Of a DNA stretch of 64,000 nucleotides, positions 4,391-58,697 are shown piece after piece. The notes beneath the pieces were generated by a model that had not been told where the DNA came from, made no database searches, and saw only the letters and a program-made list of their open reading frames with translations. The stretch's first letter is position 1. Each line of letters begins with the position of its first letter. The translations under genes were made by a program, and so were the position numbers. Origin of the DNA: Minisyncoccota bacterium (GTDB lineage: Bacteria > Patescibacteriota > Minisyncoccia > 2-02-FULL-40-12 > GWA2-44-9); NCBI GenBank assembly GCA_030583765.1, contig CP129474.1:521348-585347 (forward strand), given 5' to 3'.

Positions 4391-5650
4391 ATGGATCGTA
4401 TTCTGACCGCACTGAAGCGTCCGGAGCTCCGGAGCAAGATACTCTTTATTCTGGGTATCCTTGCATTGTCGCGCGTCCTCTCAACGATCCCTGTGCCTGC
4501 AATCGACGGCAGTCAGTTGAAGGAATTTTTTGCAAACAACCAATTCTTTGGTCTTATTAGCGCGTTCACGGGTGGTGGCCTCTCCAATCTTTCCATTGCC
4601 ATGATCGGCTTGGGTGCATACATCACCGCGTCGATCATTATGCAGTTGATGACTATGATCTTTCCTTCGATGGAGCAGTTGTACAAACATGAAGGAGAGG
4701 CGGGTCGCGCAAAGTTCAATCAATATTCCCGCATGCTTGCAGTGCCACTCGGCGCTATCCAGGCATACGGATTTCTAACGCTCTTGGTGCGTCAGAGTGT
4801 TATCCCTGCGATGTCCGGGTTCGAATGGTTTAATGCCATCACTGTTGTGGTTGCGGGAAGTATGCTTCTTATGTGGCTTGGTGAGCTGATGACCGAAAAG
4901 AATCTCGGCAACGGTGTCTCGCTCTTGATTCTTGCGGGTATCGCTGCGAGCATTCCCACAACGCTCCGACAGGCAATTTTTACCTACACACCCGATCAAC
5001 TCGTCACCTACATTGTCTTTGCAGTAATCTCGCTGGTTGTTATCGCCGGGGTCGTCTTTATCTCAGAGGCGCAGCGTAATATTCCAGTAACCTACGCGCG
5101 TCGCGTGCGCGGTTCCCGTGTATTCGGTGGGGTTTCCACGTATCTTCCTATGCGTGTGAATAACGCTGGTGTTATCCCGATTATCTTCGCACTCTCAATT
5201 CTTCTCTTCCCGGGCACGATCGCCACCTTCTTTGCGGGCTCGAGCATTACATTCCTTGCGAACGCGGCGCAATTCGTGCAGAACATTCTTGCGAGCAACC
5301 TGTGGTACAGCATATTCTACTTTGTGCTCGTGGTGCTCTTCACCTTCTTCTACACGGCAGTGACGTTTGATCCGAAGTCTATCTCTGAAAACATCCAGAA
5401 GCAGGGCGGCTACATTCCCGGCTTGCGTCCAGGTCCTATGACCGCGCAATTCCTCTCGTATCTGGTAAACCGCATCACGTTGGTCGGCGCACTCTTCCTT
5501 GGCGCAGTTGCTGTGCTCCCTAATGTGGTACAGGGCTTCACCGGCTTGACCGCCTTCTCCATTGGTGGAACAACTGTACTTATCGTGGTGTCAGTTGCGC
5601 TTGAGCTCATGAAACAGCTCGACGCTCAAGTCAGCATGTACGAATACTAG
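4391..5650 (+). CDS. secY: Preprotein translocase subunit SecY
   Basis: ATG at 4391 is in frame with the 4313 ORF. The protein is multi-TM, has SecY motifs and sits after L15. Confidence 0.9.
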   Translation: MDRILTALKRPELRSKILFILGILALSRVLSTIPVPAIDGSQLKEFFANNQFFGLISAFTGGGLSNLSIAMIGLGAYITASIIMQLMTMIFPSMEQLYKHEGEAGRAKFNQYSRMLAVPLGAIQAYGFLTLLVRQSVIPAMSGFEWFNAITVVVAGSMLLMWLGELMTEKNLGNGVSLLILAGIAASIPTTLRQAIFTYTPDQLVTYIVFAVISLVVIAGVVFISEAQRNIPVTYARRVRGSRVFGGVSTYLPMRVNNAGVIPIIFALSILLFPGTIATFFAGSSITFLANAAQFVQNILASNLWYSIFYFVLVVLFTFFYTAVTFDPKSISENIQKQGGYIPGLRPGPMTAQFLSYLVNRITLVGALFLGAVAVLPNVVQGFTGLTAFSIGGTTVLIVVSVALELMKQLDAQVSMYEY

Positions 5651-5697
5651 TAAAAACGAAGTAGAAAATTTCTCCCAAGGGCGCCCAAGCGGCGCTC

Positions 5698-5726
5698 TTG
5701 ACTTTTACATAAATAAACTGGATAAT
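5698..5726 (+). promoter_or_regulatory. Cassette 1 promoter: TTGACT-17bp-GATAAT
   Basis: -35 is TTGACT at 5698-5703. The spacer is 17 nt. -10 is GATAAT at 5721-5726. The RBS GAGGAGGTGGGC ends 1 nt before ATG 5750. Confidence 0.6.
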
Positions 5727-5749
5727 GTATGCACCACGAGGAGGTGGGC

Positions 5750-6151
5750 ATGGAGAGCTTTTTCACTGACATGGGCGAGGGCGATCGCGTGGTCGCGCAC
5801 GTCGGGATGCACTCGATCGACATGAGCCCCGAAGGGCGACCGGATGTGGCCTTGTCGTTGCCGATCAACGACATCGGGTACGGGGAGAGCGCTGATGTGT
5901 TGGAGGAGTATATCCTCGCCATCAACGCTGCGCTGAAGCTGGCTCATCGTCGGCTTCGTCTCGAAAGGGTTTTCGACCACCATGGCGAAGAGGTCGTGTT
6001 CGAGGGCGAGGTTTCTTTCGAGGGGCTGGTCGAAGAGGAGGGTCGTCGGGAAGAGGAGAACCCGGAAGATCCTCTGTACGCGAAGAGATTCGTTTTCATC
6101 TTCGAGGCGCTCCCCAACCCGACGTTGCGGGATCGCCACATGATGCCCTAG
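5750..6151 (+). CDS. Hypothetical acidic protein (cassette 1); GC-rich foreign-looking ORF inserted between secY and adk
   Basis: 133 aa. The start is set by the strong RBS: MESFFTDMGEGDRV... The codons are G/C3-saturated, unlike the flanking ribosomal genes. No motif was recognised. Confidence 0.6.
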   Translation: MESFFTDMGEGDRVVAHVGMHSIDMSPEGRPDVALSLPINDIGYGESADVLEEYILAINAALKLAHRRLRLERVFDHHGEEVVFEGEVSFEGLVEEEGRREEENPEDPLYAKRFVFIFEALPNPTLRDRHMMP

Positions 6152-6164
6152 TTGTGGGCTCGCC

Positions 6165-7685: not shown

Positions 7686-7713
7686 TTGACTTTATATACA
7701 AAGGTAGTATAAT
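7686..7713 (+). promoter_or_regulatory. Cassette 2 promoter: TTGACT-16bp-TATAAT
   Basis: -35 at 7686-7691 and -10 at 7708-7713. The RBS CAGGAGGTGGCAC is followed by ATG 7735. Confidence 0.6.
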
Positions 7714-7734
7714 ATACGCTCAGGAGGTGGCACT

Positions 7735-8328
7735 ATGGCCACGATGATGCAGGTCGGTCTGGCGGAGTTCGGCGCGAACGTCCGCCCCATCGCGGAGCGC
7801 ACCTTTCGGTGCCTCGTGCACAAGCGCGAGGTGACGTCTCGGGACGGTTTCGTCCTGAGCATCGGCAACATCCAGAAGGAGCTCGGACTGCCGGCGAAGC
7901 AGCTGCCGGCGATTCACCAGCTCAGCGGGTTCGTCGCCTGCTACGAGTGTCTCCCGAGTGTGAGGTCCTTCTACGGGGTGTCGTTCATGCCCCGCCTCGG
8001 GGACCAGCTCGCGCTGCTCGATCGGCACTTCAAGCTGGCGGCCCAGCAGGTGAGGGCGCGGCCGATCGCTCCGGCGACGGTCGTGCAGGGCACGACGACG
8101 GGGCGCACGGGGACGGCCATGCCCACGCTCCCTGCCGGCTACTTCGAGCGCCGGGGCCAGGCCCACAAGGGCCGGAAGTCCCGGGCCCAGAGGCGCGCGG
8201 AGGCGATGGCCAAGCGCGCGCGGCCGGCGGCCACCGCGGCCGTCGACAAGAAGGCCGCGAAGAAGGCCGCCAAGCAGGCGGCCAAGGCCAAGAACCAGAA
8301 GGGCAACGGTGGCAAGAAGCGCCACTAG
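7735..8328 (+). CDS. Hypothetical protein with histone H1/AlgP-like KAAK-repeat basic tail (cassette 2), likely nucleic-acid binding
   Basis: 197 aa. The N-terminal domain is about 110 aa. The tail reads ...KRARPAATAAVDKKAAKKAAKQAAKAKNQKGNGGKKRH. The sequence is very GC-rich. Overlapping alternative-frame ORFs are GC artefacts. Confidence 0.6.
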   Translation: MATMMQVGLAEFGANVRPIAERTFRCLVHKREVTSRDGFVLSIGNIQKELGLPAKQLPAIHQLSGFVACYECLPSVRSFYGVSFMPRLGDQLALLDRHFKLAAQQVRARPIAPATVVQGTTTGRTGTAMPTLPAGYFERRGQAHKGRKSRAQRRAEAMAKRARPAATAAVDKKAAKKAAKQAAKAKNQKGNGGKKRH

Positions 8329-8338
8329 CGGCCCACTT

Positions 8339-8388
8339 GCGGGGGTGTGTGCATACGGTGCACATACCCCCGCTTTTTCTTTGTTTTT
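8339..8388 (+). terminator. Intrinsic terminator of cassette 2
   Basis: GCGGGGGTGTGTGCA...TGCACATACCCCCGC hairpin followed by TTTTTCTTTGTTTTT. Confidence 0.6.
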
Positions 8389-8406
8389 CCATATAGGCAT
8401 ACACTA

Positions 8407-8436
8407 TTGACCTCTGGAAGGCTCTTCTGATATACT
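8407..8436 (+). promoter_or_regulatory. Putative 23S-5S rRNA operon promoter (TTGACC-18-TATACT) with leader hairpins downstream
   Basis: A near-consensus promoter lies about 290 bp upstream of the 23S 5' end. Leader stem-loops at about 8505-8535 and 8680-8720 look like processing stems. Confidence 0.4.
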
Positions 8437-8722
8437 CCCTAGTACCCAAAGATGATTACCTACCAGACAAGCGAAACCCTCAGCGGCTGACAGACCGTGT
8501 TCGCACGTCTGAAAAAGCCGCCTCAAGGCGGTTTCTGTGTCTCTAGGAGCATCACGCGGGTCGCTTCGCCCTAAGGGGCGAGACGAACCTCGCTCCATGA
8601 TCCTTTGGTATCATGAGCGGGCAGTACGTTGACAACGTGGAACGGGAGCTGAACGAAAGTTCAGCTTTGTATTGTTCGCTTTATAAGAGACCTAGGACCT
8701 CGAGTCCTAGGTGGTACTTTGT

Positions 8723-11815
<3,093 letters not shown>

Positions 11816-11873
11816 GGTCTCTTATAAAACAAACAACACAAAACCGTTCCACGTAGCGTAAAAACGCTAGAAA

Positions 11874-11985
11874 CTTGGCAGCTATACTGTAGGTGTCCCA
11901 CCTGATCCCATTCCGAACTCAGAAGTGAAATCCTGCAAGGCCCATGATAGTCGGACTCTTCCGGCGAAAGTAGGTAGCTGCCAGA
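11874..11985 (+). rRNA. rrf: 5S ribosomal RNA
   Basis: CTTGGCAGC...CCCACCTGATCCCATTCCGAACTCAGAAGTGAAA...GCTGCCAG; canonical 5S helices. Confidence 0.8.
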
Positions 11986-12024
11986 TTTCTGGCGTTTTTA
12001 TGTTGGTGAGGTATACTTGCAGAT

Positions 12025-26954: not shown

Positions 26955-26983
26955 TTGACTATATCGTATTTATTTTGTACTAT
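26955..26983 (+). promoter_or_regulatory. Cassette 3 promoter: TTGACT-17bp-TACTAT
   Basis: -35 at 26955-60 and -10 at 26978-83. RBS AGGAGGTGGCA is at 26993-27003 and the GTG start is at 27004. The native rpsF promoter is divergent just upstream. Confidence 0.55.
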
Positions 26984-27003
26984 ATGCGTCCAAGGAGGTG
27001 GCA

Positions 27004-27315
27004 GTGAATCAGAAAAAGCGAGCGACCGCGTCGCTAGCGGAGCTCGTTGCCGAAGTATCAGGGTGGCGGTTTGTGGTGGGGATGGCGGCCGTCATCGGGA
27101 GCCTCTTCATCTTCGTCTGTATGTTCCGAGCGGGCGTTGCGTGGGAACAAGGGCGTCTCGTTGCCGCAGTTGCTCTTGCGGCAGCTTCACTGGTTGCCGT
27201 CATCCTGTTTCTCGTGATCCTCACCATCGCTACGCGCAACTTGCGGGGCGACGTGCGGGAGTTTGCGAGACGCATGGGTGCTGGCATGGGCGATGACGCT
27301 GGGCTTAAGATCTAG
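27004..27315 (+). CDS. Small 2-TM membrane protein (cassette 3, gene a)
   Basis: 103 aa with two hydrophobic helices (VVGMAAVIGSLFIFV..., LVAAVALAAASLVAVILFLVIL). It is GC-rich and starts at a GTG placed by the RBS. Confidence 0.55.
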   Translation: MNQKKRATASLAELVAEVSGWRFVVGMAAVIGSLFIFVCMFRAGVAWEQGRLVAAVALAAASLVAVILFLVILTIATRNLRGDVREFARRMGAGMGDDAGLKI

Positions 27316-29106: not shown

Positions 29107-29135
29107 TTGACTTTATCGCTTTAAACTGGTATAAT
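29107..29135 (+). promoter_or_regulatory. Cassette 4 promoter: TTGACT-17bp-TGGTATAAT (extended -10) plus about 100-nt structured leader
   Basis: -35 at 29107-12 and -10 at 29130-35. The leader has hairpins CCATCCTCTAGGAGGGGATGG and TCGGCTAACAGCCGA before RBS GGAGAGAAGCA and ATG 29242. Confidence 0.55.
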
Positions 29136-29241
29136 TATAGAGTACAGTGTAGTACCTTTACATGCAGAACTGCCGCATTTCGCGGCCCATCCTCTAGGAG
29201 GGGATGGAAGAATCTCGGCTAACAGCCGAAGGAGAGAAGCA

Positions 29242-29835
29242 ATGAAGTATGACGAGATGACGTGGGGCACGATGGAGGCCGTGGTCAACAAGCTTGGCGG
29301 CATGGATGGCGTTCAGCGCTTCCTGCGCGGCGCGCTCAAGGTCGTCGAGGCGGAGGCCAATGCCGCCTTCTCGACGTTCCAGAAGATCACGCTCAGCGTG
29401 TACGACAACGTCGCGACGCTTCGCAAGGCGATCGCGGACAGCGGCAACAACATCAGCGACTACGGGGAAGACCTGCTCGCCAAGATGTCGCTGGTGAAGG
29501 AGCCCGTCGAGCTCGAGCTGGTGTGCGTGTCGGTCAAGGATCTGGGCCTGAAGTCCGGAGCCACGATCAAGCAGATCTACGATCGCGCTCGCAAGCTTGG
29601 CTTGGACCTCTGCCCGGCCCAGGTCGGACCCGAGCTCCGCCTGGCCTACCAGGATCAGCCCATCGGCGAGTGGCTGCTGGTGGCGATGGAGCAGATCACG
29701 GATCGCAACGGTCACCCGAGCGTGTTCATCGTCGGGTGTGACGTCCACGGCGTCCGCTGGTTGGACGGCGATTACGCCTACCCGAGCAACACCTGGAGCG
29801 GCCTCAGCCGTTGGGTGTTCGTCCGTCGCGCGTAA
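29242..29835 (+). CDS. Hypothetical protein (cassette 4)
   Basis: 197 aa beginning MKYDEMTWGTMEAVVNKLGG... It is GC-rich with G/C3 codons. No motif was recognised. Confidence 0.55.
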   Translation: MKYDEMTWGTMEAVVNKLGGMDGVQRFLRGALKVVEAEANAAFSTFQKITLSVYDNVATLRKAIADSGNNISDYGEDLLAKMSLVKEPVELELVCVSVKDLGLKSGATIKQIYDRARKLGLDLCPAQVGPELRLAYQDQPIGEWLLVAMEQITDRNGHPSVFIVGCDVHGVRWLDGDYAYPSNTWSGLSRWVFVRRA

Positions 29836-30662: not shown

Positions 30663-31181
30663 CTAGAGCTCGTACGGCGGTGCGGCAGGCGGCTCGGCGG
30701 GGAAAACGCTCTGCGGGTACGGCCTTTGCGGCCGGATGTAGGGCTCCCAGATGAGCGTTCTCTGCGCGCGATAGACGTGTTCCCACACGCCTTCGAGTTC
30801 CGGTGCCGTGAACCAGCGCACATCGCTGATCTCGTCCGTGGGAAGCTGGGCATGCACCGGAGATGTTTCGGAGAACTGTTGACGGGGGAACTCCCACATG
30901 AGGACGATCCCCGGCGATTTGGCGAGCGTGAAGGCGTGTGGGCACCACATGGAGGGGGCGGTCAACCAGTATCCAGTCTCCTCCCTCAATTCGCGTGCCA
31001 GTGCATCCCAGAGCCGCTCTCCGATCATGGGCGCTCCGCCAGGGAGTGACCACTGTCGAGAAGGGTATCCCGGCACCTCGTAGTTGTGCTGAACGAGGAG
31101 GATTTTCGGCTCCTTCCCTGGTGTGCGGTTGACGATGTGGGCGAAGACGCCCACCTGCGTAATGTCTCGTTTATCTCTCAC
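30663..31181 (-). CDS. NUDIX hydrolase (cassette 5, minus strand)
   Basis: 172 aa with Nudix box GGAPMIGERLWDALARELREETG. It is GC-rich with G/C3 codons. The GTG start follows RBS AAGGAGGT. Confidence 0.8.
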   Translation of the reverse strand: MRDKRDITQVGVFAHIVNRTPGKEPKILLVQHNYEVPGYPSRQWSLPGGAPMIGERLWDALARELREETGYWLTAPSMWCPHAFTLAKSPGIVLMWEFPRQQFSETSPVHAQLPTDEISDVRWFTAPELEGVWEHVYRAQRTLIWEPYIRPQRPYPQSVFPAEPPAAPPYEL

Positions 31182-31204
31182 TCAAACCTCCTTGTGAGTT
31201 TCTG

Positions 31205-31233
31205 ATAATACAATTACTTGCGCTAACTGTCAA
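31205..31233 (-). promoter_or_regulatory. Cassette 5 promoter (minus strand): TTGACA-17bp-TATTAT
   Basis: The reverse complement of 31228-33 is TTGACA, overlapping the trpS stop. The reverse complement of 31205-10 is TATTAT. RBS AAGGAGGT is the reverse complement of 31186-93. Confidence 0.55.
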
Positions 31234-51575: not shown

Positions 51576-51851
51576 ATGAAATACATGGACGAAAGTGCTA
51601 AGGCTCGCGTAGTGCGGCGCCTTAAGCTTTTGGAAGGGCAGGTGCGAGGGTTGCAAAAAATGATCGTGCAGGACACTTACTGCATCGATGTTATTACTCA
51701 GACCTCTGCAGTAAAGCAGGGGCTTTCGAATGTTGAAGATCTGCTACTTGAGAACCATCTTGACCATTGCGTACATCATCAGATGCAATCAGGCCAGGCA
51801 AAGAAGGCAAAAGAGGAAATTATAAAAGTATATAAACTGAAAAGAAAATAA
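51576..51851 (+). CDS. csoR: CsoR/RcnR-family metal-sensing transcriptional repressor
   Basis: 91 aa with ...[37 protein letters not shown]...HLDHCV... (the W-X-Y-Z Cys/His ligands). It precedes copA. Confidence 0.8.
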
Positions 51852-51852
51852 T

Positions 51853-54150
51853 ATGACGCATACACAAACCTATAATGTGAAAGGAATGCACTGCGCCTCG
51901 TGCTCATCGGTGATTGAGAAAGCGGTCCGCAAGGTTCCCGGCGTTGAGTCGGTTGCAGTAAATTTTGGCACCGAGAAGGCAAAGATTTCTTTTGATCCAT
52001 CAAAAACAAACCCGCACGATGTTTCGAAGCATATTGAGCCACTCGGCTATTCTTTAGAAGTTCCTTCTTCTGCAGAAGAAATGGGCATGTCTGAGAGCGA
52101 GCATGCCGCACACACAGGTATCAATCAGTCAAAAAAAGAAAAACTTGCGGAAGTCGCCGATATGCGGACGAAGGTACTCTCTGCTGGCCCAATAGCGCTT
52201 TTTGCGGCATTTGTTATGGGTTGGGATATATTAGCCCAATACGGTCGCGTTAGCGCTATGGGTGATGTGCTGGGGGAGTTCGTTCATCATCTTCTCCCCG
52301 TGATGGCGACGTACATTCTCTTTGTAGTGGGGAAACCATATCTCCTTGGCGTTTATCGGTTCGTTCGCTTTGGTAAAGCGAACATGGACACGCTTATTGG
52401 CATTGGGACAGTGACCGCATTTTTATATAGCTTTGCGGTCAGCGCCTTTGAAGATGTGCTGCGGCCGTTCGTGAACGTTGAGCATCAATACTATGATGTG
52501 ACTATTGTCGTTATTACATTTATTGCTCTTGGGAAATATTTAGAAGCGAGGTCAAAAATAAAGACGGGTGATGCTATTGAAAAGCTCCTCAATCTACAGG
52601 CAAAAACTGCACTCGTTATGAGGGATGGTAAAGAGGTCGAAGTCTCTGTCAACGATGTTCGTCACGGCGATTTTATTATCGTGAAACCCGGAGCGAAGAT
52701 TCCAGTAGACGGAGTCGTCACAGAAGGCAGCTCATTTGTCGACGAGTCCATGGTCACCGGTGAACCGATGCCCGTTCAAAAGCAGGGCGGTGATAGTGTG
52801 GTTTCCGGGACTCTCAATACGAGCGGCTCATTCGTATTTCGAGCAACAAAAGTTGGATCCGAGACGCTCTTGGCTCAAATTATCAAAATGGTGGAAGATG
52901 CCCAAGGTAGTCGAGCTCCTATCCAGGCGCTTGCCGACAAGATTTCCGCGGTGTTTGTTCCCATTGTTCTCCTGATAGCATTCCTGACTTTGGCGATTTG
53001 GCTTATGGTCGGGTCTCAATATATGGGATTTTCGCAGGCGCTTTCATTTGGACTCGTCTCTTTCGTTGGTATTCTAGTTATTGCCTGCCCATGTGCTCTT
53101 GGGCTTGCTACCCCAACGGCGATTATTGTTGGCGTTGGTAAGGGGGCGAAGGAGGGAATTCTTGTTAAGGACGCGGCGACCCTTGAGAAATTGCATCAAG
53201 TGAATACGGTGGTTGTCGATAAAACAGGCACCATCACCAAGGGAAAGCCTACACTTGTTGATGTTATTAATCTTTCCCGTATGTCAGATGATGAGCTTGT
53301 TGCTGTCGTTGCTTCGCTAGAAAAGAAGTCCGAACATCCCATCGCCCATGCAATTACTCAGTATGCCCATGAGAATGCTCTAAACATGCTGGAAGTGGGC
53401 GGATTTTCGATCGTGGAAGGAAAGGGGCTTCGCGGGACCATAAATGCCGTTGAATATTTTGTTGGGAATACGAAGCTTGTAGGCGACCTAGGACTCACAT
53501 TTGACGCTACGGCGCTGGATCGCTTTACCTCTCAAGGAAAGACACCGGTTATTCTTGCGACGCGCGACGCAGTACTCGGTTTCGTGATGGTTGCTGATGA
53601 AATAAAGCCTGAGGCTCAACGGGCGATCGCCGATCTTCACCAACTCGGTATCGATGTTGTGATGCTCACGGGAGACGATGAAAAGACGGCGCAATATATC
53701 GCCTCTCTTGTTGGCATCGATGATGTGATCGCACAAGTACTTCCCCATGATAAGCTGGAAAAAATCCGTACACTGCAATCACGGGGTCGCATCGTGGCCA
53801 TGGCTGGCGATGGCGTCAACGATGCTCCGGCGCTGGCACAGGCAGATGTTGGTATCGCGATGGGCACGGGAACCGATGTCGCTATAGAGTCAGCCGGTAT
53901 TACGTTATTGGGTGGAGACATCTCCAAACTTGTGAAGGCGGTGAAGCTTTCTAAAATCACGATGCGAGGCATTAAACAGAATCTTTTCTGGGCTTTCATT
54001 TACAACGTGGTTGGCATACCTTTGGCAGCTGGCGTGTTCTATCCATTTTTTGGGTGGATGTTAAACCCCGCATTTGCTGGATTCGCGATGGCGATGTCTT
54101 CAGTGTCTGTTGTGTCAAATTCGTTGCGTATAAAATCTAAAAATATATAA
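51853..54150 (+). CDS. copA: Copper-translocating P1B-type ATPase
   Basis: N-terminal HMA (GMHCASCSS), CPC in TM6, DKTGT phosphorylation site and GDGVNDAP. Confidence 0.9.
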
Positions 54151-54152
54151 CC

Positions 54153-55160
54153 ATGCATACGTATACATTTCATGTTTCTGGTACGCACTGTGCTTCGTGT
54201 AAAATCTTCATTGAGGATACATTAAGCGAACTAGACTTTGTGTCTCGAGTTCATGTGGATCTTGGGAAAGAAACGGTACTCGTTGAAGCATCTACCACTT
54301 TGGGCCCCGATGGCCTTGCGAACCTCCTTACTCAAAAGGTCGCATCACATGGATACGCACTCTCTGTGGAGCGCGCGGTGAGGGTAACGCAGAGCGGTGA
54401 TCCTCTGTGGAAGGCTTTGGGAGTCGGTTTTTCCTTCCTATTCCTTTTTGTTCTTCTTCAAAAATCGGGGATATTGAACTTTGGCTTTGGTGGGGCGATA
54501 ACGCCAACGACCAGTTTTCTCATCGGGCTTATTGCGTCTGTTTCAAGCTGCTTGGCGGTGGTCGGGGGCCTCGTTTTGTCATTGTCTGCAAAGATATCCC
54601 AAGATAACGTAAGCGATACAAAAACTTTCACCCTATTTCATATCGGTCGAGTCATAGGCTTTGCCATGCTCGGCGGCGTCCTTGGGGCAGTCGGCGGCGT
54701 CCTTGGTGTTAATTTTACGGTAACCGCGATATTGGGCATCGTCGCGTCACTCGTTATGATTTCGCTGGGGCTCAATCTTCTCGGAGTGCTCTCCAAGAAC
54801 AAGCTTACACTGTCGCCGGGCATTTTTAGTTTTTTCAAAAATATAGAGCACACAACGCTTGCCCCATTAGCCCTTGGTCTTGCGACGTTCTTTCTGCCGT
54901 GTGGGTTTACTCAGGCGATGCAAATTTCTGCGCTGAGTAGTGGATCATTCACATCCGGCATGTCGATTATGTTTATGTTTGCTCTCGGTACGCTTCCAGT
55001 GCTTGCGCTTCTCTCATTCGGATCAGCATCATTAGCGCATGGGAAATACTCATCCTTGTTCTTTAAATCAGCGGGAGTTGTTGTTGTTGGCCTTGGCCTC
55101 CTCTCTCTCCTTGCTGGACTTGCGGCGCTTGGTATTATTAATCCTCTCTTCACTATATAA
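54153..55160 (+). CDS. HMA-domain protein fused to a DsbD/CcdA-like (or TauE-like) polytopic membrane domain
   Basis: N-terminal HMA (GTHCASCK). Cysteines are conserved in TM segments (SSCLAVVGG, FFLPCGF). It lies in the copper cluster. Confidence 0.55.
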   Translation: MHTYTFHVSGTHCASCKIFIEDTLSELDFVSRVHVDLGKETVLVEASTTLGPDGLANLLTQKVASHGYALSVERAVRVTQSGDPLWKALGVGFSFLFLFVLLQKSGILNFGFGGAITPTTSFLIGLIASVSSCLAVVGGLVLSLSAKISQDNVSDTKTFTLFHIGRVIGFAMLGGVLGAVGGVLGVNFTVTAILGIVASLVMISLGLNLLGVLSKNKLTLSPGIFSFFKNIEHTTLAPLALGLATFFLPCGFTQAMQISALSSGSFTSGMSIMFMFALGTLPVLALLSFGSASLAHGKYSSLFFKSAGVVVVGLGLLSLLAGLAALGIINPLFTI

Positions 55161-55162
55161 CC

Positions 55163-55564
55163 ATGCGCATACCCACGACACTCTCGATTGTTTTAGGAAC
55201 CGTACTCGTCGTCGCCGCTGGCGTCGGATCGCTTGTGCTCCTGAAAAATATTCTCGAACCCAAAGAGGCGGTATCTGAGCAAAATGTGGAAATACGAGAC
55301 GGTATCCAGTACGTCACCATCAAAGCACGTGGCGGGTATTCTCCGAGACAGTCGCGCGCGCAAGCAAACATACCCACGCGGCTCATCGTCAAGACTAACG
55401 GCACATATGATTGCTCTCTCGCGCTCGTGATTCGCTCAATCGGTTATCAGAAGATTTTATCCCAGACTGGTGAAGAGGTGATTGATCTGGGCAATCCATC
55501 CCCGGGAACGCTTCAAGGGCTCTGTAGTATGGGCATGTATAGTTTCGCTATTGCCTTCGAGTGA
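55163..55564 (+). CDS. Membrane-anchored cupredoxin-like protein
   Basis: The C-terminal ...GTYDCS...GTLQGLCSMGMYSFAIAF resembles the C...H/M...GM copper-site pattern of small blue-copper folds. There is an N-terminal TM anchor. Confidence 0.45.
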   Translation: MRIPTTLSIVLGTVLVVAAGVGSLVLLKNILEPKEAVSEQNVEIRDGIQYVTIKARGGYSPRQSRAQANIPTRLIVKTNGTYDCSLALVIRSIGYQKILSQTGEEVIDLGNPSPGTLQGLCSMGMYSFAIAFE

Positions 55565-56123: not shown

Positions 56124-56726
56124 ATGCGGAAAAGACTTATCATCGCTGGTGGCATATGTATTGCCGTGGCCGCGCTTATCTGGGCCGCGCTTTTTGTACT
56201 GCGTTTTCCGGAAACGCACCCTGACGCCACATTACGCATTGCAGAGCGCATAGATGCTTTTTTATTTCGCATCACATTTCCTCTGAAGCTTGCGCGTTTA
56301 AGCATGGAAGAGCCTGATGCGGTGTTAGTAATGCCCGTGTACGGCGTTTCAGTGCGGCAGGTGAGCGACACATGGGGCGCTCCTCGGGGCGAAGACCGCG
56401 GGCATGAGGGACAAGATATCTTTGCTCCTCGTGGAACGCCTGTTTTTTCTGCAACGAATGGATACATTGTTCGCATACAAGAGGACAGAGAGTTGGGCGG
56501 CAATACGGTGTGGATTGCTGGTGCAGGCGGGATTCGTTATTACTATGCGCACCTTGATCGGTTCGCAGAGGGCATCGCCGTGGGGCAGTGGGTGACTACC
56601 GATTCTGTGATTGGATTTGTGGGGAATACAGGCAACGCGGTGACTACGCCCCCACACCTTCATTTGGGGATGTATCTGCGCCGTGAAGCGCTGAACCCCT
56701 TTTCTTTACTTGTAAACCGCCCGTAA
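56124..56726 (+). CDS. M23 family metallopeptidase (LytM-like)
   Basis: HEGQDIFAP...GNTVWIAG...YYYAHL...GNTGNAVTTPPHLHLGMY (the HxxxD and HxH zinc ligands). Confidence 0.8.
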   Translation: MRKRLIIAGGICIAVAALIWAALFVLRFPETHPDATLRIAERIDAFLFRITFPLKLARLSMEEPDAVLVMPVYGVSVRQVSDTWGAPRGEDRGHEGQDIFAPRGTPVFSATNGYIVRIQEDRELGGNTVWIAGAGGIRYYYAHLDRFAEGIAVGQWVTTDSVIGFVGNTGNAVTTPPHLHLGMYLRREALNPFSLLVNRP

Positions 56727-56733
56727 CGGGTGC

Positions 56734-56762
56734 TTGACTTTACTATTATTACGTGCTATAAT
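56734..56762 (+). promoter_or_regulatory. Cassette 8 promoter: TTGACT-17bp-TATAAT (perfect consensus)
   Basis: -35 at 56734-39 and -10 at 56757-62. RBS AGGAGGTGGCA is at 56770-80 and ATG at 56782. Confidence 0.6.
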
Positions 56763-56781
56763 TAAGGACAGGAGGTGGCAT

Positions 56782-56925
56782 ATGGTCCACAAGCCGACCC
56801 GCCGTACCCCCGCGTGCATCACGCGGGGCACGCACCGGGAGGTCCCCGCGGCCCCCTGGCTCCGCCCCAGCGAGAAGCTGGGCGCCTGGAGCCCCGAACA
56901 CGGGTTGCCCAAGGAGTACCGCTAG
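56782..56925 (+). CDS. Hypothetical small basic protein (cassette 8)
   Basis: 47 aa, MVHKPTRRTPACITRGTHREVPAAPWLRPSEKLGAWSPEHGLPKEYR. It is extremely GC-rich. Confidence 0.4.
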   Translation: MVHKPTRRTPACITRGTHREVPAAPWLRPSEKLGAWSPEHGLPKEYR

Positions 56926-56948
56926 CGCGGTACCCGAGGACAACCCCA

Positions 56949-56995
56949 GCCCCCGCAAGCGATTGCGGGGGCGCTCTTTTTTCATTGCTTTTTTA
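56949..56995 (+). terminator. Intrinsic terminator of cassette 8
   Basis: GCCCCCGCAA-GCGAT-TGCGGGGGC followed by GCTCTTTTTTCATTGCTTTTTT. Confidence 0.6.
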
Positions 56996-57020
56996 GGGCG
57001 CCATGCTAGAGTAAAATCTC

Positions 57021-58697
57021 ATGCGGTACTTGCCTTCCGTTAAGGTGCAGGTTGCTGTACTTCTTGTTTTTGTCTGCGCACTCTACGCGCAGACGCTTCG
57101 TTTTGATTTTGTCCATTTTGATGAAGATGAGCTGATTATTGATCGTCAAAGCTTCTTGCAAAGCATTGAAAATGTGCCAAAGGCATTTACTACTGATACG
57201 GCCTATCCGTTTGGTCGCTCGGTGTTCTATCGTCCCGTGCAAACACTTTCATTCATGGTGGATGCGCATATTGCGGGTGATCGCCCTCTGTGGTACCACG
57301 GCATGAATATTGCTCTCCATGCAGCCGGTACCCTTTTAGTGTTAGCCGTGTTGCGTGCGCTGAGCTTTGGTCCATGGGCAGCACTTGGGGGCGCACTTGC
57401 TTTTGCAGCACACCCCGCGCTGGTACCTGCGGTTGCATGGGTCCCTGGGCGCAATGACATTCTTGCGGCGATCCCTCTTCTCGCCAGTTTTTGGTTTTTC
57501 ATCCGTTATGCGCACACCCAAAAGCGTAGCTATCTGGTAGCGCATGCACTGTTTTGGCTCTTGGCACTGGGGGCGAAAGAATTCGCCGTAGTCTTGCCGG
57601 TCGTTGCGTACGCATATGCGGTGCTGGTGCGACGCTGGCACTGGCGTACATCATTTACGCTCTCTGAGGCGGCTGTGTGGCTTGGAGGCTGGGTGCTCTA
57701 TGCTGTCGCGCGCACGATAGCTCTTGCCAACGTCCAGACGCTTTCGTTCACTGAGGCATTTCTGTCAGTCGTACGTTCGAGTGGAGCATTTCTAGAATAC
57801 ATCACCAAAGCGGTGGTGCCTGTTCGGTTGGCGCTTATGCCGACGGGCGATCTGACAAACATGATTATTGGTGGGGTACTTGCGCTAGGCGCCCTGATTA
57901 CCATTATCGCATTTCGAAAAAAGACTCAGCTCGCTCAATTCGGTTTTGTGTGGTTCGTGCTTTTCCTCCTTCCATCGCTTGTTACCAACGAGCCGACGGC
58001 GCGCCAGGTTTTCTTCGAGAATCGTCTCTACATGCCGATGGTGGGCATTATTATCGCGGCATTGAGCTTAGTGCGCCTTCTCCCGCGCAAGCCGCTTCTG
58101 ATCGCACGCGGGGCATTAGTGGTTATTGCTATCTTTTTTGCATTCCACACGTTCCAACGTATTCCTGCATTTCAAAACAGTGAGACGTATTGGACGCTTG
58201 CTGCTGCCCAGTCGCCCAACCTTGCACGTGCGCAGGATGGGCTGGGGACAGAATTTTTCCGCAAGCGCAATGTAGGACAGGCGCTCTTCCTGCACCAGCG
58301 TGCACTTGCGCTCCATCCTGAAGCAAAGCGAGTGTGGAATAATATTGGTTCCGCATACCTTTTCATGCATAACATTCCTGCGGCACAAGATGCGTTCGCG
58401 AAAGAAATAGAGAGGAACCCTGGGTTTCCTCCCGCATATCACAACCTAGCAATCACGCTGCTATTCCAAGGGAAGGAAATCGAAGCGGAGCAACTGTGGC
58501 GCCAGGCATTAGCTATCAATCCATGGTATTCATTCGCACACCAAGGACTCGCGCTCCTCACCGCGCAGACGGGACGAATTGATGAAGCAAAAGAGCATAT
58601 CCTCTTTTTAGAGCGAGCAGGCGTCCCTCTTCTTCCAGAGCTGATTCCAATTCGTGATGCGCTCTTTCCATCGCCTACGCCGTCCCCTTCACTCTAG
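57021..58697 (+). CDS. Polytopic membrane protein with C-terminal TPR repeats (PMT/ArnT-like glycosyltransferase family candidate)
   Basis: 558 aa with about 10 TM helices in the N-terminal two-thirds. A TPR-like C-terminus follows (...LHPEAKRVWNNIGSAYLF..., ...AINPWYSFAHQGLALL...). Confidence 0.55.
   Translation: MRYLPSVKVQVAVLLVFVCALYAQTLRFDFVHFDEDELIIDRQSFLQSIENVPKAFTTDTAYPFGRSVFYRPVQTLSFMVDAHIAGDRPLWYHGMNIALHAAGTLLVLAVLRALSFGPWAALGGALAFAAHPALVPAVAWVPGRNDILAAIPLLASFWFFIRYAHTQKRSYLVAHALFWLLALGAKEFAVVLPVVAYAYAVLVRRWHWRTSFTLSEAAVWLGGWVLYAVARTIALANVQTLSFTEAFLSVVRSSGAFLEYITKAVVPVRLALMPTGDLTNMIIGGVLALGALITIIAFRKKTQLAQFGFVWFVLFLLPSLVTNEPTARQVFFENRLYMPMVGIIIAALSLVRLLPRKPLLIARGALVVIAIFFAFHTFQRIPAFQNSETYWTLAAAQSPNLARAQDGLGTEFFRKRNVGQALFLHQRALALHPEAKRVWNNIGSAYLFMHNIPAAQDAFAKEIERNPGFPPAYHNLAITLLFQGKEIEAEQLWRQALAINPWYSFAHQGLALLTAQTGRIDEAKEHILFLERAGVPLLPELIPIRDALFPSPTPSPSL

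Follow-up and report, generated by a model that had tools for sequence, protein, structure and literature searches.

A predicted stand-alone transcription unit with a 47-codon reading frame and conserved 3′ hairpins in a Minisyncoccota genome

The unit and its locus

The DNA analyzed here (the window, 64,000 nucleotides of contig CP129474.1 from the Minisyncoccota assembly GCA_030583765.1) is a piece of the chromosome of a groundwater bacterium of the Patescibacteria (Paceibacterota). Among its genes are those for ribosomal proteins, rpoB/C, and groES/EL; it also includes a 23S-5S rRNA pair that is unlinked. The element under study is a stand-alone unit of ~260 bases composed of a promoter, a 47-codon open reading frame (ORF), and two conserved 3′ hairpins, and it is flanked by the genes of an M23 peptidase and a PMT_2/TPR membrane protein. 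An earlier note on the sequence had described it as a perfect-consensus promoter driving a basic peptide, and had considered either a small regulatory or toxin-like peptide or a small RNA (sRNA) with an incidental ORF as its product.

Six independent public assemblies hold this locus, as identified by the exact product of the upstream gene. They are 99.3–100% identical to the window, and the element is identical across all six. For comparison, two metagenome-assembled genomes (MAGs) of Patescibacteria from Hainich groundwater were used, H51 (L008/L009) and H41 (L007). H51 contains an orthologous element at the identical site, with 32 substitutions over 262 nt and no insertions or deletions. 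At the same site in H41, the element is replaced by a 44-nt spacer with its own small terminator. Its presence in six identical assemblies, and as a diverged orthologue in another species, excludes both an artefact of assembly and a synthetic insertion. The PMT_2/TPR gene begins 38 nt past the terminator of the unit, and its own promoter (TTGCTT-16 nt-TGcTAGAGT) is kept in the three species, including the element-less L007. The empty site and the independent promoter of the downstream gene argue that the element is an autonomous, dispensable insertion. All three species lie equally far apart (amino-acid distances 0.160–0.165 over five genes), so the insertion cannot be dated by phylogeny.

The promoter is of the sigma-70 type, and its hexamers match the consensus at 11 of 12 positions. 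The −35 hexamer matches at five of six, being TTGACT rather than TTGACA; the claim of a perfect consensus therefore needs correction at this one position, while the 17-nt spacer, TATAAT, and an extended −10, with TGn at the end of the spacer, are as described. The window contains three matches to the pattern TTGACW-N16–18-TATAAT, where 0.02 would be expected by chance. In the L008 orthologue, both hexamers are unchanged and three substitutions fall in the spacer. From these features, the promoter is expected to be active and strong. Transcription is predicted to start at about 56768–56770, ~13 nt 5′ of the ATG, which gives a whole transcript of ~214 nt, two thirds of which is ORF.

The very short leader contains an 8-nt Shine-Dalgarno sequence (SD), followed by an AUG in the loop of a start hairpin. 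In L008, this hairpin reads GUGAAC/GUUCAC, with G56778A matched by C56787T, and an equivalent GUGGC/GCCAC hairpin occurs in 4/4 orthologues of the sister cassette described below. The start hairpin alone was not significant in the randomization test described in the next section (365/2000). At the other end, the terminator is strong, as had been noted, with a predicted stem probability of ~0.99 whether the ORF is free or masked, and it adjoins the −35 (56985–56990) of the promoter of the downstream gene.

The ORF encodes MVHKPTRRTPACITRGTHREVPAAPWLRPSEKLGAWSPEHGLPKEYR, for which the tryptic peptides EVPAAPWLRPSEK and LGAWSPEHGLPK are predicted. The product is basic, as the earlier note had it, with an isoelectric point (pI) of 10.4 and a net charge of +5; moreover, it is Pro/Arg-rich, with seven prolines, and hydrophilic, with a grand average of hydropathy (GRAVY) of −0.99. 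The L008 peptide has a GRAVY of −0.73, and the pI of the two peptides ranges from 10.4 to 11.0. No hydrophobic stretch is present, and the window peptide has no membrane segment. The extreme GC richness of the ORF was likewise borne out, at 74% with a local peak of 79%, compared with 52% in the window. GC at codon positions 1/2/3 is 0.65/0.60/0.96, and the third-position value (GC3) is 0.94 in L008 and ~0.5 in the surrounding genome. Only 5 of 200,000 shuffles gave any codon position as GC-extreme as the GC3 of the ORF. This third-position G/C periodicity sets in with the ATG and dies away at the stop, and is therefore coextensive with the ORF.

Table 1. Coordinates of the unit, of the sibling cassettes, and of neighboring features in the window
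Feature	Position	Strand	Details
Sigma-70-type promoter (predicted)	56734–56762	+	−35 TTGACT, 56734–56739; 17-nt spacer; extended −10 TGcTATAAT, 56754–56762, with TATAAT at 56757–56762; both hexamers kept in L008
Short leader with SD and start hairpin	56769–56790	+	CAGGAGGTGGCA, 56769–56780, including SD AGGAGGTG, 56770–56777; GUGG 56775–56778 / CCAC 56787–56790; AUG 56782–56784 in loop
47-codon ORF	56782–56925	+	ATG 56782; TAG 56923–56925
Hairpin A	56808–56828	+	Inside ORF; CCCCGCGUG-CAU-CACGCGGGG; 9 bp; invariant between orthologues
Hairpins B′ and B	56835–56859; ~56858–56893	+	Inside ORF
Hairpin C	56902–56946	+	Stop UAG (56923–56925) in apical loop; 3′ arm in 3′ untranslated region (UTR)
Intrinsic terminator	56949–56982	+	Unidirectional; 10-bp stem with 8 GC and GCGA loop, 56949–56972; T6, 56977–56982
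Antisense ORF	56749–56985	−	78 aa
PMT_2/TPR gene	57021–58697		
Copper-handling cluster	51576–55564		
Sibling cassette	5698–6151	+	TTGACT-17-GATAAT; GAGGAGGTGGGC; ORF 5750–6151, GC3 0.77
Closest sibling cassette	7686–8378	+	Promoter start TTGACTTTA; SD CAGGAGGTGGCA; start hairpin; terminator; ORF 7735–8328
23S rRNA	8718–11986		Region that includes the 23S rRNA (3092 nt)
Sibling cassette	26955–27315	+	TTGACT-17-TACTAT; AAGGAGGTGGCA-GTG; 103-aa hydrophobic ORF, GC3 0.68
Sibling cassette	29107–29835	+	TTGACTTTA...TATAAT; 105-nt structured 5′ UTR; 197-aa ORF 29242–29835, GC3 0.89
Sibling cassette	30663–31233	−	TTGACA-17-TATTAT; AAGGAGGT; NUDIX hydrolase ORF, GC3 0.75

Constraint on the reading frame and on the RNA

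Between the window and L008, the SD, its spacing, the ATG, the stop, and the length of the ORF are all unchanged. Eleven codons of the ORF differ, five synonymously and six non-synonymously, which gives a dS of 0.19, a dN of 0.09, and a dN/dS of 0.48. In the flanking genes, dS is 1.2–4.7 (saturated), third positions differ at 0.38–0.6, and dN/dS is 0.02–0.13. The silent sites of the ORF differ at 5/41 compared with ~34/76 in the adjacent gene (p = 0.0002), and are ~4-fold less diverged than those of the flanking genes, the level in the adjacent genes being ~0.38–0.5. Substitutions are spread roughly uniformly (11–15%) over the promoter, ORF, and 3′ region. A recent recombination tract was considered and rejected, since silent sites on either side are again ~0.4 diverged within 100 nt. 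A dip in divergence at the start of the downstream gene was also rejected as a sign of recombination, because the same dip appears against the element-less genome. Collectively, these comparisons indicate that the element is real and, judged from its substitution pattern, under purifying selection where present.

The transcript is predicted to fold far more stably than expected (z = −5.7) into a string of independent hairpins. The two-sequence consensus structure comprises 67 pairs, of which 60 are invariant, three are compensatory (56916/56933, 56955/56966, and 56957/56964), four are changed on one side, and none is broken. Furthermore, 8 of the 27 substitutions in the transcript lie in compensatory pairs or in the matched pair of the start hairpin. 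When the L008 substitutions were placed at random with their type kept, the folding energy was −101.6 ± 5.7 kcal/mol, compared with −126.4 kcal/mol for the real substitutions, and none of 2000 randomizations was as structure-preserving. When codon position was kept as well, 1 of 1000 was.

This signal is not evenly distributed. Regional randomization gave 2/2000 for the terminator, 17/2000 for hairpin C, and 21/1000 for the ORF together with hairpin C, compared with 76/1500 for the ORF alone and 169/2000 for hairpins A, B′, and B alone (not significant). In hairpin C, G56916C in codon 45 is compensated by C56933G located 3′ of the stop, and the other two compensatory pairs both lie in the terminator. 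The changes in B′ and B are one-sided and keep their pairs (G·U to A-U, U·G to C-G, and G-C to G·U). Additionally, the structure-conservation test for the ORF body gave z = −1.7, and four coding segments of a sibling cassette used as a control gave −1.9 to +1.1; the fold of the ORF alone gave z = −2.4, and the sibling segments −4.4 to +0.15. With both values inside the sibling range, the ORF body resembles the normal coding sequence of a cassette. The specifically conserved structure is the 3′ hairpin pair, that is, hairpin C and the terminator. The structure matches no Rfam family: Rfam 15 gave no match to the element at gathering thresholds, and the best permissive matches reached 11.7–14.3 bits against thresholds of 35–100 (E 0.2–8), none of them credible. 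No tRNA or transfer-messenger RNA lies inside the element.

When the changed positions of the ORF were cross-tabulated by the consensus structure, 6/15 unpaired and 2/31 paired third positions had changed, compared with 5/38 unpaired and 2/54 paired first and second positions. The codon-position effect (p = 0.04) and the pairing effect (p = 0.01) were both significant, and the rate at unpaired third positions is near the silent-site level of the flanks (0.38–0.6). The alifold consensus used here derives from the two compared sequences themselves; with single-sequence structures, both trends persist without significance (p = 0.1–0.34). The cross-tabulation is therefore only suggestive of two superimposed constraints.

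What the unit may encode

The explanation that we rank first, at about an even chance, is a translated orphan micro-protein gene with a structured mRNA, in which the start hairpin and the 3′ hairpin with the terminator are the structured parts. According to this explanation, the near-consensus extended −10 promoter would start the RNA ~13 nt before the ATG, and the very short leader with its 8-nt SD would direct translation of the 47 codons into a basic, Pro/Arg-rich micro-protein. The strong intrinsic terminator would then end transcription, just behind hairpin C with the stop codon in its loop, and hairpin C and the terminator would most likely together set the mRNA 3′ end and shield it. The ORF would thus be translated with the peptide as the effector, and the 3′ hairpins presumably act in termination and stability. 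The peptide is probably disordered, as modeling suggests, and from its composition it might, as a conjecture, bind nucleic acid or the ribosome. In favor of coding, the same module of promoter, SD, and start hairpin drives conserved proteins in the sibling cassettes, namely a NUDIX hydrolase and a 197-aa family found in four lineages.

Several observations weigh against translation. AlphaFold, run on the single sequence, gives no fold for the peptide, with no secondary structure and a featureless, low-confidence model (predicted local distance difference test score, pLDDT, 61). A composition rich in R, P, A, and G is also what the translation of GC-rich non-coding sequence is expected to look like. 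The dN/dS of 0.48 is not significantly different from 1 (~6 synonymous to 9 non-synonymous steps), and the codon-position effect is not significant with single-sequence structures (p = 0.17–0.34). At the C-terminus, RNA pairing is kept at the expense of the amino acids, since the changes K44A and E45G lengthen the helix of hairpin C in L008. Gene callers never annotate the 47-codon ORF, and an exact-sequence look-up finds no called gene. The peptide has no match in Pfam, PHROGs, or PADLOC, no relative in a word-indexed search of 5.8 billion clustered proteins, and no true homologue by phmmer among 1.84 billion representative proteins. Two phmmer matches, to an immunoglobulin-like repeat protein and to a short tandem-repeat protein, were rejected as internal-repeat artefacts. 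Finally, the reachable data contain two orthologues only. A scan of Joint Genome Institute (JGI) metagenomes recovered the H51 contig alone and no third orthologue, and IMG/VR and the phage and plasmid collections, queried with DNA and peptide (including tblastn against phages), gave no match to the element.

Some of the same observations can be read as a structured sRNA of ~214 nt with a relic or incidental ORF, its G/C periodicity being inherited from an ancestral coding sequence. The stable transcript fold (z = −5.7), the 67 pairs with none broken and three compensatory, the folding preserved by the real substitutions (0/2000 and 1/1000 randomizations), the ~4-fold conservation of silent sites relative to neighbors, the C-terminal pairing that is kept while amino acids change, and an orphan peptide without predicted structure and with a dN/dS not clearly below 1 would all fit. 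However, no Rfam match appears even at E ≤ 10, and the structural signal lies mainly in hairpin C and the terminator; the ORF alone is no better conserved in structure than sibling coding sequence, and its fold (z = −2.4) is inside the sibling range. Moreover, both lineages keep the frame, its ATG and stop, and a complete, optimally spaced SD; the periodicity is exactly ORF-wide and maintained in both; and the identical expression module drives proteins elsewhere in the genome. We regard an RNA without a coding role as unlikely, at roughly one chance in five. 6S RNA in particular was rejected, because the element forms independent hairpins rather than one long closed helix with a central bubble (~185 nt), has no Rfam 6S match, and is missing in a sister species.

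From the two orthologues compared, coding has somewhat more support than an RNA-only function, because the ORF body resembles sibling coding sequence and it is the two 3′ hairpins whose structure is strongly conserved. The ORF is conserved in L008 and a stable RNA structure is present, so the earlier note is refuted on neither count. Its interpretation is partly supported, in that the unit is autonomous, probably strongly expressed, and shows both coding-type and RNA-structure constraint.

Those two constraints could also be independent, in a dual-function RNA that encodes a peptide and is structured in its own right. Known RNAs of this kind include SgrS/SgrT, RNAIII/delta-haemolysin, and SR1/SR1P. 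Similar to these, the element would yield an independent, structured RNA of ~200 nt with a small ORF, a strong terminator, and both types of constraint, and its structure is conserved by covariation, concentrated in the 3′ hairpins. In contrast, it has no Rfam match, its ORF takes up two thirds of the transcript, and structure conservation within the ORF is no stronger than in a normal coding sequence. The cross-tabulation (6/15, 2/31, 5/38, and 2/54) is what superimposed constraints would produce, and the evidence for the micro-protein and for the sRNA applies alike. Yet the cross-tabulation is significant with the alifold consensus only, the structure of the ORF body is no better conserved than in ordinary sibling coding sequence, and a conserved 3′ hairpin with a terminator needs no separate RNA function. 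We therefore consider independent dual function rather improbable, slightly below the preceding alternative.

Improbable, too, and at less than one chance in ten, is a non-functional or selfish remnant, that is, a G/C-rich acquired fragment with a fortuitous promoter that was recently exchanged between lineages. The roughly uniform divergence (11–15%) over promoter, ORF, and 3′ region, the recombination of cassettes between lineages evident in a mosaic sister ORF, the lack of the element in one sister species, and the orphan state of the peptide would be consistent with it. Nevertheless, 8 of 27 substitutions are compensatory or matched and no pair is broken, a pattern that neutral drift could not give; both lineages have intact promoter hexamers, SD, ATG, stop, and terminator; and the flanking silent divergence of ~0.4 within 100 nt leaves no recent recombination tract.

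A toxin-like product, raised by the earlier note, does not agree with the peptide. Similar to type I toxin-antitoxin systems, the unit has an ORF of <60 aa, a strong promoter, and a hairpin at the translation start. In contrast, the peptide is hydrophilic (GRAVY −0.99) and basic, has no membrane helix, and matches nothing in PADLOC, Pfam, or the defence and toxin libraries. A sequence scan of the minus strand in and near the element found no promoter-like site except a weak 9/12 match at 57162.

The order of promoter, short ORF, stop-codon hairpin, terminator, and a gene 38 nt further on recalls classical leader-peptide attenuators (trpL and hisL type), which here would control the PMT_2/TPR gene. 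We consider this very improbable. The terminator stem forms with a probability of ~0.99 with or without an ORF covered by ribosomes, and the best competing pairing with the 5′ arm of the terminator reaches −14.8 kcal/mol compared with −23.0 kcal/mol for the terminator; termination thus appears constitutive, with no alternative antiterminator. Moreover, the downstream gene has its own promoter, which is kept in the element-less L007, and the ORF contains no run of regulatory codons.

Least credible of all is that the antisense 78-aa ORF is the real gene, although it is called in all Logan assemblies of the locus and has a protein database entry (P0001): L008 has another codon in place of its ATG, it spans the terminator and extends into the plus-strand promoter, the G/C-locked position is the first of its codons and not the third, it has neither a promoter nor an SD in front, and the word-indexed search of 5.8 billion proteins finds only itself. 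The antisense annotation in public assemblies is very likely a mis-annotation.

Sibling cassettes, surroundings and meaning

The element is one of at least six single-gene units in the window that share one architecture, and it is the smallest. This architecture comprises TTGAC(T/A)-17 nt-(−10), a leader of ~20 nt with (A/G)AGGAGGT, a start codon, a G/C-enriched ORF, and a terminator. The five other units encode proteins of 103–197 aa, one of them a NUDIX hydrolase, and the target resembles them in its promoter-leader-SD module, its single ORF with a GC3 well above that of the host, and its terminator. Over the six units, payload GC3 is 0.68–0.96, and the proteins are 36–77% identical across species. 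The payload of the target has no second copy in the window or related loci, where only the promoter and SD blocks recur.

The closest sibling shares with the target the promoter start, the SD, and the hairpin with the AUG in its loop. It encodes a 197-aa orphan (GC3 0.94), a protein that both related MAGs and a fourth lineage have kept at the same site. Moreover, a 16-nt block from SD to start is identical between the target and the L012 sister cassette. The related loci with sibling cassettes are L010 (6950–10650) and L012 (6950–10650). Within the ribosomal-protein cluster, the gap between secY and adk is a variable array (window 5650–6153, L010 6880–8498, and L012 6862–8485), in which paralogues of one family (MESFFTDMG...) occur as one copy in the window and as a tandem of three in each related MAG; a TTGACTT.TA promoter and an CCACGAGGAGGTGGG SD are present for every copy separately. 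The 5′ UTR of the cassette at 29107 (29136–29241) contains three hairpins before the SD and has no Rfam match at gathering thresholds.

The G/C-locked third positions are the most unusual feature of these cassettes, and the cassette class is more surprising than the target. In the closest sibling, GC3 is 0.91–0.96 in four lineages with the protein only 62–77% identical. Its silent third positions differ at 0.10–0.30 compared with 0.53 in a host gene, and C↔G exchanges make up 45–77% of its silent changes compared with 8% in the host gene. Similarly, in the secY-adk family C↔G exchanges account for 28–40% of silent changes compared with 9–15% in secY, adk, and map. The target evolves in the same way, in that 5/8 of its third-position changes are C↔G, a very small sample, and its dN/dS of 0.48 is well above that of the flanks. 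Recent import from a high-GC donor was rejected as the origin of the high GC3, because the sisters keep GC3 > 0.9 over four diverged lineages. The sister ORF is mosaic relative to L013 (33–632), with 90 substitutions in the first 294 nt and 12 in the last 294 nt, which indicates recent recombination inside the gene; the terminator of the sister cassette is identical between the window and L013. GC-biased gene conversion has been proposed for bacteria (PMC4450053). Here, it and selection on the mRNA are both candidates for the third-position lock.

Two known kinds of unit resemble these cassettes in part. Phage morons, a concept from lambdoid prophages, are autonomous promoter-gene-terminator units between conserved genes. 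Like a moron, the element consists of one ORF between a strong promoter and an intrinsic terminator of its own, lies between two conserved genes, is missing in a close relative (44 nt in L007), and differs in base composition from its surroundings (74–79% GC compared with 52%). In contrast, there is no prophage and no phage gene nearby, the neighbors being core or accessory cellular genes; matches are lacking in the phage collections, IMG/VR, and PHROGs; and the payload composition of the cassettes is actively maintained rather than ameliorating. Similar to integron cassettes, these are single-gene accessory units that form variable tandem arrays at fixed chromosomal sites (one compared with three copies between secY and adk). 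However, each unit has its own promoter and terminator, and among 20 ORFs scanned there was no integrase, transposase, or phage gene; attC sites were not searched for.

Several features of the surroundings were also recorded. Only a weak hairpin covers the stop of the M23 peptidase gene in the window (56718–56732), and this hairpin is destroyed in L008, whereas the M23 gene of L007 has a proper terminator (L007 5890–5954). In genomes that contain the element, M23 transcripts probably continue into it and stop at its terminator. In the region 56985–57023, the −10 of the downstream gene ends 8 nt 5′ of its ATG, which suggests a leaderless mRNA, and the first 40 codons of this gene show lowered silent divergence against both relatives. 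The copper-handling cluster encodes a CsoR-type repressor, a CopA P-type ATPase, an HMA-DsbD membrane protein, and a cupredoxin-like protein. It aligns with the two related MAGs at its edges only and is apparently an accessory island adjacent to the unit. The 23S rRNA is longer than the 2925-nt model, with an insertion near 9030–9090, and is followed by 5S with no 16S upstream; a cassette and a structured leader of ~340 nt (8380–8717) precede it. Unlinked, expanded rRNA genes are typical of bacteria of the candidate phyla radiation (CPR).

In kind, the element is a new orphan member of a familiar category of small accessory genes. A broader proposal, which we put forward tentatively and consider unlikely at about one chance in five, is that the cassettes form a new accessory-gene class in Paceibacteria and that the target is a bifunctional transcript, acting as a structured RNA and encoding a basic micro-protein. 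Such a class would consist of single-gene units with near-consensus promoters, full-length SDs, fast-evolving proteins, and third positions held at G/C beyond the species split, in hosts whose core genes have a GC3 of ~0.5. The lock would then reflect GC-biased gene conversion at recombination hot spots or selection for mRNA stability or structure; most speculatively, it could be codon matching to a high-GC partner organism. A survey of horizontal gene transfer in aquifer Patescibacteria describes no such cassettes (PMC12455944), and our literature search found nothing on small RNAs of CPR bacteria.

Small proteins and small RNAs of CPR bacteria are essentially uncharted, and automatic annotation went wrong at this very locus by calling the antisense ORF. 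Should the element prove to be no more than a lineage-specific hypothetical gene, the finding would matter for annotation alone. Beyond that, the element is a compact test case for the translation of orphan micro-ORFs in ultra-small episymbiotic bacteria: its signals are strong, its selection can be measured, and its presence is naturally polymorphic. The cassettes offer a natural system to separate biased gene conversion from mRNA selection in bacteria, and presumably strongly expressed, fast-evolving, G/C-locked cassettes in variable arrays at fixed chromosomal sites may mark genes at the interface with hosts or phages.

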